A stretch of 6,455 bases of DNA, taken from IMG/VR virus record IMGVR_UViG_2751185961_000002, one strand, 5' to 3'. The position numbers were made by a program, and so were the translations under genes. The notes beneath the pieces were generated by a model, which ran no database searches, had not been told where the DNA came from, and saw only the letters and a list, made by a program, of their open reading frames with translations. Positions 937 to 6,126 of this stretch are shown piece by piece (the stretch's first letter is position 1; the number at the start of each line of letters is the position of its first letter). Source of the stretch: a virus. Lineage: Duplodnaviria; Heunggongvirae; Uroviricota; Caudoviricetes.

Positions 937-1242
937 TTAAGCATGAGGCGAAATTTCTGCCGGGCGGTATTTTGTTGAGAGATGAGATACGTCAACTTCT
1001 CTTTCCGCTTTTTCGAGGCTCCATGCCGTCTGGAGACGAATCCATGAAGACGGAGTTCCACCCAGGACAGCAGCGAGACGAACAGCCATTTCAGGAGATA
1101 TTGTCGCATTACCTGAAACCAGTCGCTGAACAGTGGAAGGCGCGACATCAAGCGCTCTTGCCAGTTCCCTGATTCCAATATTCTGATCTTCCAGAATATC
1201 AGCAATAATTTCTCCGGGATGAGGGGGGTTAAACATCGCCAT
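937..1242 (-). CDS. higA: HigA-family antitoxin (HTH/XRE DNA-binding), 101 aa
   Basis: Sequence ...NPPHPGEIIADILEDQNIGIRELARALDVAPSTVQRLVSGNATISPEMAVRLAAVLGGTPSSWIRLQTAWSLEKAE matches the HigA addiction-module antidote signature (HPGE...helix-turn-helix...WLRLQ). Start ATG (1242-1240) overlaps the stop of the upstream toxin gene by 1 nt (TAATG). Confidence 0.85.
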   Translation of the reverse strand: MAMFNPPHPGEIIADILEDQNIGIRELARALDVAPSTVQRLVSGNATISPEMAVRLAAVLGGTPSSWIRLQTAWSLEKAEREVDVSHLSTKYRPAEISPHA

Positions 1243-1520
1243 TAGTGGTAATCCTCGTAGTTAAGAATATAAGCATCGCCGTTCCGAAACTCGAATGTGA
1301 TTCTCCAGTTACCGGAGACGGTGACAGACCATGTATCGGATCTGTCCCCCTGCAACTGGTGCAGCCTGTACCCGGCAAGGTTAATATCATCAATGATTTC
1401 AGCTTGATCTATTACCTGAAGGCGCGTTCTCAGGCGTTTAACGTGATTGGGATTTATGCCTGATGCATTTCCTGTTTCAAAGAAACGTTGAAGTCCTTTG
1501 TGTTTCCAGCTTTTTATCAT
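1242..1520 (-). CDS. higB: HigB-family toxin (RelE/ParE superfamily mRNA interferase, 'plasmid maintenance system killer'), 92 aa
   Basis: Start chosen at the internal ATG (1520-1518, MIKSWKHKGLQRFFETG...) with AGGAAA SD about 6 nt upstream. C-terminus ...GDRSDTWSVTVSGNWRITFEFRNGDAYILNYEDYH is the classic HigB motif (cf. Rts1 HigB). Toxin-first order and 1-nt overlap with higA are typical of higBA. Confidence 0.85.
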   Translation of the reverse strand: MIKSWKHKGLQRFFETGNASGINPNHVKRLRTRLQVIDQAEIIDDINLAGYRLHQLQGDRSDTWSVTVSGNWRITFEFRNGDAYILNYEDYH

Positions 1521-1583: not shown

Positions 1584-1613
1584 TTGACAAAAATAGGTAT
1601 CCGGGATTATATT
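1584..1613 (+). promoter_or_regulatory. Candidate plus-strand sigma70 promoter, divergent from the higBA promoter: -35 TTGACA (1584-1589), 18-nt spacer, -10 TATATT (1608-1613)
   Basis: Perfect -35 hexamer and 5/6 -10 hexamer; predicted start near 1620, about 80 nt upstream of an intrinsic terminator. Confidence 0.4.
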
Positions 1614-1676
1614 CACCGCACGCCAGCAAAATCTGGCGTCGGGATTAGGAACCCCGGATATTCAACCGCGACAGAC

Positions 1677-1699
1677 ACACGCCGCGAGCGTGTTTTTTA
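1677..1699 (+). terminator. Rho-independent terminator (tR2-like position, or terminator of a short leader RNA)
   Basis: Stem ACACGC (1677-1682) / GCGTGT (1688-1693), loop CGCGA, followed by TTTTTTATT. Confidence 0.55.
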
Positions 1700-1863
1700 T
1701 TGTCGTATGCACACGCACATCTGAATTATGGTGGGGCGTATGGGGCAGCCGAAAGGCTGGCCGGTTGGTTGATCCGGTAGTTCCTAACCCTGTACGTCTC
1801 GCCACCCGATGATTAGGAACCTGACGGTGGTGAATGAAAAACTCATCAACCGGAGGCGTCACT

Positions 1864-2535
1864 ATGACAACTCAAGTTTCTGTTGAAACACTCTCCACGA
1901 TTACTTACAAGCAGATCCCCGTTATCACTACTGAACTTTTGGCGCACCTTTACGGCACAGAAGCTATTCGTATTCGCCAGAATCACCACGAAAACAAAGG
2001 TCGTTTCATTGAGGAAAAACACTTCTTCAAACTTGAAGGTGAAACTTTACGTGAGTTCAAGCACAGAGTAGCTTTTAACTACTCTGTGAAAATTGCCCGT
2101 AACGTTCGTTCCCTCATCCTCTGGACTGAACGCGGCGCTGCCCGTCATGCAAAAATGCTCGAAACCGATCGGGCGTGGGAGGTGTTCGAAAAACTGGAAG
2201 ACTGCTATTTCAGCCAGGGAAAAACAGCACCAACCGAACAGCAGCCGCAGATTCAGCCACAATTCACAGCCGAGGAAATCATCCTCCTTTGCTACATGCA
2301 ACTCTGGATGGAAAAAGCCCAGGACCTTAGCAAGCAGCTGTACCCCATAATGAAAGAGCTGAACTCCTCATACACGAACAAGCTGTATGACATTGCGTTT
2401 GAGACTATCTACATGGTGACGAAGAACAGAGACGCGCTACTAAGGGAGGTAACACGTCTCGACATGTCAAGTTCCGTTATCCAGCGGGCCATGCCAATGC
2501 TGAAAAGCCTGCGGGCAAGACAATTTGAATTCTGA
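1864..2535 (+). CDS. ORF6N-domain phage protein (Roi / antirepressor-like DNA-binding), 223 aa
   Basis: Start at ATG 1864 (MTTQVSVETL...) with GGAGG SD 7 nt upstream. N-terminal region IPVITTELLAHLYGTEAIRIRQNHHENKGRFIEEKHFFKLEGETLREF fits the ORF6N consensus (...LAelYgvetk.lnqnvkrN.eRF.e..fmFqLt.eE...). C-terminal half not recognised. Confidence 0.8.
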   Translation: MTTQVSVETLSTITYKQIPVITTELLAHLYGTEAIRIRQNHHENKGRFIEEKHFFKLEGETLREFKHRVAFNYSVKIARNVRSLILWTERGAARHAKMLETDRAWEVFEKLEDCYFSQGKTAPTEQQPQIQPQFTAEEIILLCYMQLWMEKAQDLSKQLYPIMKELNSSYTNKLYDIAFETIYMVTKNRDALLREVTRLDMSSSVIQRAMPMLKSLRARQFEF

Positions 2536-4058: not shown

Positions 4059-4293
4059 TATTCAGCAGGTGCCTGAACGCATGGCTTTATTCAGGTCGTC
4101 TGGAAAAGCGCATGAGCAGCGTAATAGCGGAGTTCATGGCGAAGAGTATATGAACAGATTATTCGAATGCTATATGAGACTGAAGCACGGAGATCGCTAT
4201 GACCTGACATGTGATGCTGACGGCTTCTACTGCCGTGAAGTTGTGAAACGAATGTTTGAAGTGTGGTGTCATTGTAAAGGATGGGGGCTGTGA
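4051..4293 (+). CDS. Small Cys-rich protein, 80 aa, unknown function; possibly a Q-related zinc-binding module
   Basis: ATG 4051 overlaps the ninH stop (ATGCGTGA); MRDIQQVPER...CYMRLKHGDRYDLTCDADGFYCREVVKRMFEVWCHCKGWGL. The N-terminus MRDIQxVxER resembles, from memory only, the start of the short 933W/DLP12-type Q antiterminators. Unverified. Confidence 0.5.
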   Translation: MRDIQQVPERMALFRSSGKAHEQRNSGVHGEEYMNRLFECYMRLKHGDRYDLTCDADGFYCREVVKRMFEVWCHCKGWGL

Positions 4294-4907
4294 TGCGGCT
4301 AACCCCAGTATTCGGCATGGTTAACTTTATTAATGATGCTCATTTCCGCCGCATATGGAGGCATCCGAAGAAAATCATTAACTCTCGTCAGAAAGCATGG
4401 GTTCACTACATGCTACAGGTATGGGGAAATGTTAACGCTGGTGATGATTCTCCTTGTGGTGCAATTAACGTTATTGGGCGACTGATGATTCGCAGTCAGT
4501 GGAGCGATGACAAAGCTAAGCAGATTGAGTCTGTTGTCATGCGTCTGTATGAAGAAGACGGACTACGTGGAGATGAACTCCATCAGAAAGCCCGAGAACT
4601 GGTCATCCCTCAGTCATCGGCAGGTAATATCATTGCTCTCGCCAAAGAATCCGATGATGCTGCTTTCGTTGAACGTGTGATGGTTGAGACCTTTCATCGT
4701 GAAAGCCCTGTCCGTGATGTAGCTATTAGGCGATATTGCAATCGCGACAGCACGCAAGATATCGCCAGGATGATTTCTCAGATAACAGGAGTTGATATTC
4801 AGTATTGCCGGAGGCGGGTCGTGTGGTGCGAGAGGGTCCTTGATTCAGAAATGTTTTATGCAATGAAGCGAGAATTGGAGAAAGAACTTCTAGTGATTGC
4901 TGGATGA
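4293..4907 (+). CDS. 204-aa protein in the Q (late antiterminator) position; function assigned by synteny only
   Basis: ATG 4293 overlaps the upstream TGA (TGATG) and follows a GGGGG SD-like run. Last gene before the candidate pR'-tR' unit, which is where Q sits in lambdoid phages. The sequence does not resemble lambda Q as I recall it, so the family is unassigned. Confidence 0.5.
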   Translation: MRLTPVFGMVNFINDAHFRRIWRHPKKIINSRQKAWVHYMLQVWGNVNAGDDSPCGAINVIGRLMIRSQWSDDKAKQIESVVMRLYEEDGLRGDELHQKARELVIPQSSAGNIIALAKESDDAAFVERVMVETFHRESPVRDVAIRRYCNRDSTQDIARMISQITGVDIQYCRRRVVWCERVLDSEMFYAMKRELEKELLVIAG

Positions 4908-5171: not shown

Positions 5172-5298
5172 TGTGGTGAAGCTCAATGGCGAGCTAGCAG
5201 ACAGGCGACTGTGAAAATACTAGTCATGTAGCGGATCGCCGCGCGTATTGTAATCGGCAGCGCACCGATGGGAGCTGGTTCGATTCCGGCCGCCACAA
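5172..5298 (+). ncRNA. tRNA-like element in the late leader (atypical; probably a degenerate tRNA or tRNA-derived structure, not a canonical tRNA)
   Basis: Canonical T-arm GCTGG-TTCGATT-CCGGC (5274-5290); perfect 5-bp anticodon-like stem ATCGG/CCGAT (5253-5257 / 5265-5269) with 7-nt loop CAGCGCA (no U33); acceptor-like pairing TGTAGCG (5227-5233) / CGCCACA (5291-5297) with one mismatch; no D-arm; no encoded CCA. Enclosed by a longer stem GTTGTGGTG (5170-5178) / CGCCACAAT (5291-5299). Confidence 0.35.
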
Positions 5299-5417
5299 TC
5301 CAAACTGAGCCGTAGCCTCTGGGTGTCCTGAATTCATCAGTGATAGTTACGCTGCGGCCTTCTACATACGATTTTTGTGAAAAGCGGGTGGCAAGAGGCT
5401 GCGAAATTTTTAAATAC

Positions 5418-5637
5418 CTCACAATTCCACAGCTTGATGATTGTCTGGCTGCCGGAGAATTTGTTAAAAATTACATCGCGTGGTGAATCCCCCTCAGCGG
5501 CGGGGCATCTGGCAAAGTGTATGATCCAGCGAACATGCAAATTCAGTAGCCAGGCTGAATTTACCGGGAGGCACCTGGCACCATGCGACAGACAGAAATT
5601 AGGCTATACTTCAGCCCCTCTCCGGAGGGGCTTTTCT
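5418..5637 (+). repeat. Late-leader repeat unit A (about 220 nt), ending in an intrinsic terminator
   Basis: Shares with unit C the blocks CTCACAATTC, ATTGTCTGGC, TTTGTTAAAAA, TGGTGAATCCCC...GGGGCAT, ACCGGGAGGCACC.GGCACCATGC and the terminator CAGCCCCTCTCCGGAGGGGCTTT. Terminator stem GCCCCTC (5614-5620) / GAGGGGC (5625-5631), loop TCCG, then TTTTCT. Confidence 0.6.
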
Positions 5638-5689
5638 GTGCAGGATGTATCACAGTTTCCTGAATTCTGAGTACTGTCCTGTTACTCAG

Positions 5690-5849
5690 GGTGCTATATT
5701 TTCTGACGTGATGAAAGTCTGCCGGAAGGCGGAACGTATCGGAAATGACCCAGTAGAGAAAACGTTGACTCAGATACCGATGCTGAGTTACCGGGAAACC
5801 GGCATCACATGACCGCTATCCTTCCAGGCTCGCTCCGGCGGGCCTTTTT
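5690..5849 (+). repeat. Late-leader repeat unit B (diverged or partial copy), ending in an intrinsic terminator
   Basis: CTGAGTTACCGGGAAACCGGCATCACATGACC aligns with CTGAATTTACCGGGAGGCACCTGGCACCATGCGAC of unit A. Terminator stem GGCTCGC (5827-5833) / GCGGGCC (5838-5844), same TCCG loop, then TTTTT. The 5' boundary is approximate. Confidence 0.45.
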
Positions 5850-5886
5850 ACTGCAGAAAACAGTTTTCCCGTAAAATGCCACGTTA

Positions 5887-6119
5887 CTCACAATTCAGGC
5901 TGGCGATTATTGTCTGGCCAGCGGGAAGTTTGTTAAAAAAATATGGCATGGTGAATCCCCTGTGCGGAGGGGCATATCAGCGACAGGTGTTTGGTCACAC
6001 CCCTTATCCTTTCTGGTGCGGGTTCAGGTGCTGATACTGAACTCACCGGGAGGCACCCGGCACCATGCATGAACGGTACATAGCGCTACTCTCCAGCCCC
6101 TCTCCGGAGGGGCTTTCTT
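5887..6119 (+). repeat. Late-leader repeat unit C (about 233 nt), ending in an intrinsic terminator
   Basis: Same conserved blocks as unit A. Terminator stem GCCCCTC (6096-6102) / GAGGGGC (6107-6113), loop TCCG, then TTTCTT. Confidence 0.6.
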
Positions 6120-6126
6120 GTTGGAT

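Follow-up and report, generated by a model that had tools for sequence, protein, structure and literature searches.

A promoter and IsrK-type leader RNA as the probable first part of a P1 immI-type antisense module upstream of a prophage anti-repressor gene

Why would a phage place a near-consensus promoter only about 80 nt ahead of an intrinsic terminator, in an interval that carries no annotated gene? The locus lies in a 6,455-nt stretch of Caudoviricetes DNA (IMG/VR record IMGVR_UViG_2751185961_000002), hereafter the window, and the whole window looks like a nin region from a lambdoid prophage. On the minus strand, HigB and HigA (937-1520) lie immediately upstream of the interval and on the opposite strand to it. 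On the plus strand, the interval is followed by an ORF6N gene (1864-2535), NinB, a YbcO-family gene, RusA and NinH and then, 3' of NinH, by a plus-strand ORF (4293-4907) at the place where related phages carry Q. Escherichia phage GER2 and several E. coli chromosomes carry positions 1560-1870 with 100% identity, and in these identical copies the interval from higB to ORF6N carries no annotation at all. Among 5,426 complete E. coli genomes, 741 contain similar sequence at an identity of at least about 75%. The first-pass annotation of the window had proposed that the interval encodes either a discrete small RNA of about 80 nt or a terminator-containing leader, possibly a tR2-like attenuator governed by phage antitermination factors. 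An inverted repeat that could serve as a HigA operator was sought in 1500-1625 and was not found.

A sigma-70 promoter, TTGACA-N18-TATATT, occupies plus-strand positions 1584-1613 (-35 element at 1584-1589, -10 element at 1608-1613, 18-nt spacer), exactly where the first-pass annotation had put it, and is predicted to start transcription near A1620. It is the best promoter match in the window and the only one there that agrees with the consensus at 11 of 12 positions. The plus-strand RNA that would follow opens, in its MFE fold, with hairpin 1 (1620-1639), whose stem extends the CGCCAG/CUGGCG helix already recognized at 1621-1638 to 7 bp (1620-1626/1633-1639) and encloses the loop CAAAAU. Hairpin 2 (1640-1656) was likewise present as described, with a CGGG/CCCG stem (1640-1643/1653-1656) that displays AUUAGGAAC in its loop. 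A terminator scan recovered the intrinsic terminator at its earlier placement, 1677-1699, composed of a 6-bp stem ACACGC/GCGUGU with a 5-nt loop (1677-1693) and the tract U6 (1694-1699). The energy of its hairpin (-7.1 kcal/mol) points to a terminator of modest strength that is probably leaky, and the combination of a modest hairpin with U6 fits partial read-through.

The promoter scan alone is no proof of function, because the window contains 7 promoter-like sites compared to 9.1 +/- 3.1 in shuffled sequences, which is no enrichment. The predicted fold of the 80-nt RNA (-23.5 kcal/mol, z = -1.42) was matched by 20 of 200 shuffles and is uninformative. Because both the promoter scan and the fold energy are unremarkable, the case rests on comparative evidence. 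An Rfam scan, which the first-pass annotation had suggested, was run over the whole window and returned the isrK family (RF01394, named 'Hfq binding RNA') at 1620-1698 with 68.9 bits (E = 1.2e-13; model positions 1-77 of 77; gathering score 50 bits). The c4-a1b1 family (RF03163) overlaps this match over its full length of 1-53 at 1607-1660, with 44.5 bits (E = 5.6e-09), just under its gathering score of 46.7; phage P1 itself reaches 51.0 bits with the same model.

The same scan placed a C4-type antisense RNA (RF01695, 67.5 bits; gathering score 45), the expected partner of an IsrK-type RNA, at 1724-1809 on the plus strand. Its fold energy is -43.5 kcal/mol (z = -3.96), and it ends in GCCACC at its 3' end. 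The only reading frame through C4 terminates at the TGA of 1810-1812, and no plus-strand ORF bridges 1724-1864. With no ORF between C4 and the ORF6N gene, the latter (1864-2535, plus strand) follows as the candidate regulated output, an anti-repressor gene with Pfam matches to ORF6N (71.1 bits) and P22_AR_C (31.4 bits), whose start codon is the same in RefSeq for an identical E. coli copy (equivalent to 1864). In all nine related phage loci that we examined (Stx phages, a Yersinia phage, a Klebsiella phage and Salmonella phage SW-37), isrK is followed by C4 about 25 nt later, and the GenBank record of the Stx2 phage F039 already carries an 'isrK Hfq binding RNA' and then a 'C4 antisense RNA'. 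In phage VT2-Sakai, the module lies between ninE and ant-roi-ninG-ninH-Q. The first-pass annotation had passed over C4 as well as two further sites discussed below, a2 (1811-1821) and b2, which lies over the ribosome-binding site of ORF6N.

To broaden the comparison, 98 distinct modules that could be parsed were collected from a pattern scan of IMG/VR with the conserved 5' part of C4, combined with fetched loci. The C4 3' end RCCACC is found in 94 of the 98 loci, and in 80 a TTGAY...TAnnnT pattern precedes C4 at the same distance. In 72 loci a strict scan detected a hairpin plus T-run that precedes C4 by about 30 nt; most of the remaining 26 have a terminator by eye, with a shorter stem or a larger loop. 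These terminators were identified sequence by sequence, in place of a covariation analysis of the terminator helix that was dropped because its columns were misaligned between subgroups, with just 40-61% of cells paired. A first MAFFT alignment of all pattern hits, which included about 10 chance matches, was also discarded and a cleaned set was used. Among 48 homologues, all seven base pairs of hairpin 1 show compensatory changes and 91% of cells are paired, and none of 500 shuffles reached its covariation score. Its loop CAAAAU is conserved among the homologues, and hairpin 2 is paired in 99% across the alignment.

In dozens of phages, the promoter, two hairpins and terminator precede a C4 gene at constant distances. 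Because of this recurrence, the isrK match and the covariation of hairpin 1, the element stands above chance; a chance origin of the promoter, hairpins and terminator was considered and is ruled out by the covariance-model match and the covariation. On the strength of its sequence, the RNA at 1620-1699 very likely belongs to the IsrK family over its full length, as an unannotated copy of an RNA type that is already known. The promoter and leader appear to stand in the same relation to an anti-repressor operon as they do elsewhere in the family. By analogy with that family, the RNA would be a short isoform if the terminator stops the polymerase, and the 5' leader of the C4-ant transcript upon read-through.

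We found that the leader and the region downstream of it share a set of short complementary sites, all on the plus strand, which we name after the corresponding P1 elements. Site a1 (1644-1652) is the loop AUUAGGAAC of hairpin 2, with the core UUAGGAAC at 1645-1652; the first-pass annotation had singled out this loop, which proves to be a recognition element complementary to C4. Site b1 (1662-1668, UCAACCG) is single-stranded and complementary to C4 1761-1773. Within C4, the b' recognition site CCGGUUGGUUGAU (1761-1773) lies in the loop of C4 hairpin 2 and is complementary to b1 and b2, and the a' recognition stretch GUUCCUAACCC covers 1780-1790. The first 8 nt of a' (1780-1787, GUUCCUAA) fall within the unpaired 3' internal stretch of C4 and are the 8-nt Watson-Crick complement of the core shared by a1 and a2, while the CCC at 1788-1790 opens the closing stem of C4 and additionally complements the GGG of a1. 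Downstream of C4, the a2 target site GAUUAGGAACC (1811-1821, core at 1813-1820) is an exact repeat of 1643-1653, and its position agrees with the annotated a2 of P1. The b2 target site AUCAACCGG (1845-1853) contains UCAACC(G) and lies on the anti-repressor's own Shine-Dalgarno sequence, overlapping GGAGG at 1852-1856, 8 nt ahead of the ATG at 1864.

These complementarities are conserved as pairings across phages whose sequences differ. The 98 modules contain 20 types of a', 31 types of b' loop and 49 combinations of the two. A duplex-energy matrix over 11 loci ranked the cognate partner first in 10 cases for a1b1 and in 8 for a2b2; this measure is noisy, as GC-rich stems contribute to it, and it was replaced by a test on all 98 loci that scores the longest complement, with at least 7 nt required, in cognate and non-cognate pairs. 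By this test, a1 complements its cognate a' in 84/98 loci (4.2% of non-cognate pairs; median position -77 from the C4 start) and b1 its cognate b' in 62/98 (non-cognate 5.2%; median -60). On the other side of C4, a2 complements a' in 97/98 loci (non-cognate 4.1%; median +9 after the C4 stem) and b2 complements b' in 81/98 (non-cognate 3.2%; median +39). The a and b boxes therefore show a three-way covariation of C4 with its upstream and downstream partners, which keep fixed positions. The a' of the window also occurs in four loci with another b', and its b' in three loci with another a', while the combination of the two is unique within the 98-locus sample. Since each box is found with other partners and their pairing in the window is unique, the boxes reassort.

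The two flanking pairs of sites differ in their relation to translation. A Shine-Dalgarno-like motif overlaps b2 in 74 of 94 loci, compared to b1 in only 4 of 79. From b2 to the next start codon, the median distance is 10 nt. Because the motif is common at b2 and rare at b1, a1b1 amounts to the target copied without its ribosome-binding site.

We also calculated how these sites would pair. In the MFE fold of 1620-1880, the a1 segment (1641-1656) pairs with 1775-1790 and the b1 segment (1662-1667) with 1763-1768, so that the middle of the IsrK-type RNA (1641-1667) is engaged with 1763-1790 downstream in a duplex of -57.8 kcal/mol. The complete fold has an energy of -103.1 kcal/mol, compared to -93.8 kcal/mol for IsrK and C4 folded separately, a gain of 9.3 kcal/mol, and it mirrors the 'structure A' described for the Gifsy-1 transcript (PMC4825925). 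The complementarity between a1b1 and the recognition region of C4 is almost unbroken. This region is predicted to form a duplex of -34.8 kcal/mol with a1b1 and of -27.5 kcal/mol with a2b2. The upstream copy pairs with C4 at least as well as the downstream target because of its spacing, which is 17 nt in a1b1, close to the 13 nt in C4, and 32 nt between a2 and b2. Whole-molecule cofolding of C4 with the target leader yielded a ddG of 0.0, and cofolding of C4 with the short RNA yielded just -2.2 kcal/mol. Any pairing by C4 would have to begin as loop-loop contacts, which lie outside what MFE folding models.

The arrangement closely resembles the immI region of P1 and P7 (related Rfam entries RF01695 and RF03163, clan CL00128). 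The P1 GenBank record lists, in order, promoter P1c4 (P51b), 'putative a1', 'putative b1', c4, a2, b2, icd and ant1/2, and a hairpin plus U-run is present after b1. The window has the same order of promoter, a1, b1, hairpin plus U-run, C4, a2, b2 at the ribosome-binding site and anti-repressor, with the same three-way complementarity and the same RCCACC at the C4 3' end. Measured from C4 and from the start codon, a2 and b2 take closely similar positions in P1 and in the window; in P1, a2 begins 4 nt after c4 and b2 lies 11-18 nt before the icd start. Judged by its position, the promoter at 1584-1613 is the apparent equivalent of P1c4/P51b. The P1 sequence scores 51.0 bits with the c4-a1b1 model, 68.8 bits with C4 and 35.1 bits, below threshold, with isrK; the P1 leader and the window leader therefore belong to diverged subgroups. 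Three differences stand out. The host element here is a lambdoid prophage, whereas P1 is a plasmid prophage. P1 carries icd between c4 and ant, and translation of icd is the direct target, whereas the window has no icd. The anti-repressor of the window, as assigned from its Pfam domains, is of a different protein family from Ant1/2.

A second close relative is IsrK of the Salmonella prophage Gifsy-1. The window RNA has the same three-hairpin architecture and Rfam model, and each of the two RNAs has a promoter of its own and an intrinsic terminator that is leaky, in the window probably so. Extensive complementarity links each RNA to the sequence that directly follows it, and in both cases an anti-repressor gene lies further downstream, in the part of a lambdoid prophage close to Q. 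In Gifsy-1, the short terminated IsrK and the read-through anti-repressor mRNA have both been shown experimentally (Hershko-Shalev et al. 2016, PMC4825925), so that the small RNA and the leader, which the first-pass annotation had offered as alternatives, are both forms of the prototype and by homology may both be made here. The read-through mRNA is translationally silent, and the region downstream of IsrK gives rise to a stable processed RNA, STnc1160. Helix b-I forms between the middle of IsrK and about 30 nt of 'orf45' further downstream, and IsrK supplied in trans increases anti-repressor translation more than 100-fold, an effect that depends on this pairing with the downstream region and is lost in IsrK mutants (PMC4825925). 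The 'orf45' is conserved in its nucleotide sequence and not in its amino-acid sequence (PMC4825925), which is the pattern expected of an RNA gene. The Gifsy-1-like Salmonella phage SW-37 carries isrK, C4, a gene and isrJ in the order published for Gifsy-1; we used it as a proxy, and its numbering is not exactly aligned with that of the published mutations (G28, G31, C159 and C162; PMC4825925). The window differs from Gifsy-1 in its recognition sequences (a = UUAGGAAC, b = UCAACC) and in its ORF6N/P22_AR_C type of anti-repressor. Furthermore, in Gifsy-1 a translated orf45 is coupled to the anti-repressor start, whereas no orf45-like frame runs from C4 into the start codon of the window. Because the frame of Gifsy-1 orf45 or P1 icd is absent, the translational-coupling step cannot operate here, and the published trans-activation is not transferable unchanged.

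More distant systems show the same principle. Satellite phage P4 (CI RNA, seqA and seqC) also has a processed antisense RNA flanked by complementary sites on one transcript; there, transcription of replication genes terminates prematurely, whereas the window is predicted to block translation of the anti-repressor. IsrK has been called a structural homologue of P4 seqA (PMC4825925), and the Rfam C4 and isrK profiles detect relatives of CI and seqA (PMC10111431). A comparative study from 2010 included the c4-a1b1 motif as well as c4 antisense RNA (PMC2864571). The family, its neighbours and its principle are thus already in the literature and in Rfam, and the window copy leaves the known picture of the family unchanged. 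What appears particular to this copy, on comparison of the loci, is that no icd or orf45 frame bridges C4 and the anti-repressor and that its a/b combination is unique in the sample.

We judge it likely that the region comprises the promoter and first RNA of a P1 immI-type antisense module that controls the prophage anti-repressor, with a mechanism of the following kind. Transcription from 1584-1613 would start near 1620, and the first 80 nt or so would form the IsrK/c4-a1b1 RNA. Polymerases that pass the terminator would produce a read-through transcript that carries C4 (1724-1809), a2, b2 over the ribosome-binding site (1845-1856) and then the anti-repressor. In P1 and P7, RNase P releases C4 from the read-through transcript, and repression is followed by Rho-dependent polarity. 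If the window follows P1 and P7, C4 would likewise be cut out by RNase P, and its a' and b' would pair with a2 and b2, blocking anti-repressor translation at the gene's own ribosome-binding site and keeping the prophage immune. In cis, a1b1 may lock the read-through transcript into an inactive fold, as Gifsy-1 IsrK suggests. In trans, the short terminated RNA would act on the C4 region, so that repression is relieved, anti-repressor is made and induction is favoured; by analogy, it most likely relieves C4 repression by target mimicry. Since the terminated RNA and the read-through transcript act differently, their ratio would set the switch.

A more specific form of this mechanism is possible, and we put it forward tentatively, as a proposition that leans towards the doubtful. 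It holds that the short RNA, as a version of the target that has no ribosome site and binds C4 better than the true target, is a dedicated decoy for C4 within a three-RNA switch of decoy, antisense and target that is set by the leakiness of the terminator, that the a and b boxes are a combinatorial address, that the Gifsy-1 'orf45' is the C4 gene and that no upstream coding frame is needed. A rival to the module mechanism as a whole is a leader that works in cis only, where a1b1 and the terminator set the flow of polymerase into C4-ant and hold nascent C4 inactive, and the 80-nt RNA is a by-product that does nothing in trans. The predicted read-through fold pairs a1b1 with C4 in cis, a1 and b1 are given as 'putative' target sites in the P1 record, and in native gels the binding of IsrK to the wild-type long RNA was minimal at 37 deg C (PMC4825925). 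We nevertheless consider the cis-only leader unlikely, since IsrK in trans activates the Gifsy-1 anti-repressor and its mutants fail to do so (PMC4825925), and since a terminator with a U-tail, typical of stable Hfq-bound small RNAs, is kept in nearly all members including P1.

Two further explanations are both improbable. According to one, the site is a lambda tR2-like terminator of the early rightward operon that stops upstream transcription or, with N or Q, lets it pass, and the promoter is incidental. The lambda 6S RNA, StxS and tR2 do share a constitutive promoter closely before an intrinsic terminator, near or within the nin region, and early termination at phage promoters gives a short RNA and sometimes a read-through mRNA (PMC7547250). 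The module does lie in the nin region, as in VT2-Sakai, and upstream of ninB...Q in the window, where all transcription that arrives from outside would be subject to an intrinsic terminator. Those systems use antitermination by Q or N and have no partner antisense RNA, in contrast to the window, where specificity would reside in the pairing of a1/b1 with C4. The fixed distance of the promoter in 80 of 98 loci, its annotation at the homologous position of the non-lambdoid P1, and the opposite orientation of higBA directly upstream all argue against a plain terminator, in which the covariation of a1/b1 with C4 has no place. The comparison with tR2 and antitermination factors in the first-pass annotation is not where the homology points; that is to the P1 immI antisense type with its own conserved promoter.

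The other explanation is a trans-acting, Hfq-dependent small RNA that regulates core-genome mRNAs of the host through its loops or single-stranded stretch. The prophage small RNAs AgvB, AsxR and StxS regulate host mRNAs. The Rfam family is named after Hfq binding, the RNA ends in a Rho-independent terminator with a U-tail, and the invariant-looking CAAAAU loop is explained by no model. The variable parts of the RNA, however, co-vary with the adjacent C4 and not with anything in the host, so that a host target is an improbable main function; such a role could exist alongside the main one.

With the IsrK-type RNA placed at the head of such a module, an unannotated intergenic stretch beside the anti-repressor gene of a lambdoid, Stx-phage-like prophage gains a function. 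The 'dual-function RNA' IsrK and the classical a1b1/C4 system of P1 can be seen as the same device, one that can work without the upstream coding frame of Gifsy-1. If the decoy proposition is true, the reassorting a and b boxes would keep co-resident prophages from cross-talk. As control of the anti-repressor influences prophage induction, the module is relevant to how stable such prophages are.

The terminator of the IsrK-type RNA (1677–1699, plus strand) is flanked by CGACA (1669–1673) and UGUCG (1701–1705), which lengthen its hairpin to a folding free energy of −11.5 kcal/mol. The sequence ACACGC in the terminator's 5′ arm (1677–1682) recurs 34 nt downstream, at 1711–1716, and the spacer preceding the antisense RNA C4, ATTGTCG-ATGCACACGCACA, shows conservation across lambdoid members.

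An IsrK-type terminator is also found outside the lambdoid phages. In phage P1, a hairpin and U-run follow the phage's own a1b1 region (48230–48311), and the isrK model scores this segment at a sub-threshold 35.1 bits. Consequently, the IsrK-type terminator is an old feature of the immI antisense immunity module, and lambdoid phages are not its sole carriers.

Salmonella phage SW-37 has a Gifsy-1-type layout, with isrK, C4 and isrJ located within about 910 nt (1111–2019; Rfam scores of 46.2 bits, which is below the gathering score, 61.9 bits and 101.7 bits, respectively). This span agrees in both length and layout with the published isrK-orf45-anrP-isrJ transcript of Gifsy-1 (PMC4825925). Therefore, C4 falls where that study draws orf45/STnc1160.

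On the other side of the IsrK promoter lie the divergently oriented genes (937–1520, minus strand) for an HTH antitoxin and for a toxin of the HigB type, which scores 78.9 bits. The gap of approximately 100 bp between them and the IsrK-type RNA (1521–1620) must be common to the higBA and IsrK promoters; a search of this gap for an inverted repeat, as a candidate operator, detected none. The minus strand also carries an ORF with a DUF4145 domain (88–645; 26 bits), which bears no relation to the IsrK-type RNA.

Several other small-RNA signals were observed. On the plus strand, the ORF that occupies the position of Q is followed by a tandem array of three STnc100 copies, two of them full-length (5448–5641 and 5917–6125; Rfam scores of 139.9 and 129.8 bits against a gathering score of 47) and the third weak and degenerate (5677–5852; 30 bits), with a terminator-like hairpin closing each copy. 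The segment at 5269–5339 (plus strand) resembles the 3′ half of a tRNA (ggttcgattccggccgccaca). ARAGORN found no tRNA in the window, including at this segment, where the sole Rfam match was to tmRNA at a chance-level 13.5 bits; the segment could represent a decayed tRNA gene like those located downstream of Q in Stx phages. Small RNAs also adjoin related modules elsewhere: sRNA-Xcc1 lies directly 3′ of the anti-repressor in phage phiSTEC1589 (2261–2351; Rfam 68.6 bits), and ryfA, truncated by the end of the locus, lies at 1–162 of a Yersinia phage locus (Rfam 77.7 bits).

Two related phage loci carry tandem C4 modules, three in L036 (9774–11108) and two in L081 (4803–5481), spaced by exactly 656 bp and with C4 recognition sequences a′ and b′ that are identical between copies. 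Either the immunity module has truly been amplified in these loci, or the arrays are an artefact of assembly. Among 5,426 complete E. coli genomes, 741 contain similarity to window positions 1584–1866, at up to four places per genome, and a single E. coli cell often houses several modules. Reassortment of the a/b specificities thus bears on cross-talk between modules that share a cell.
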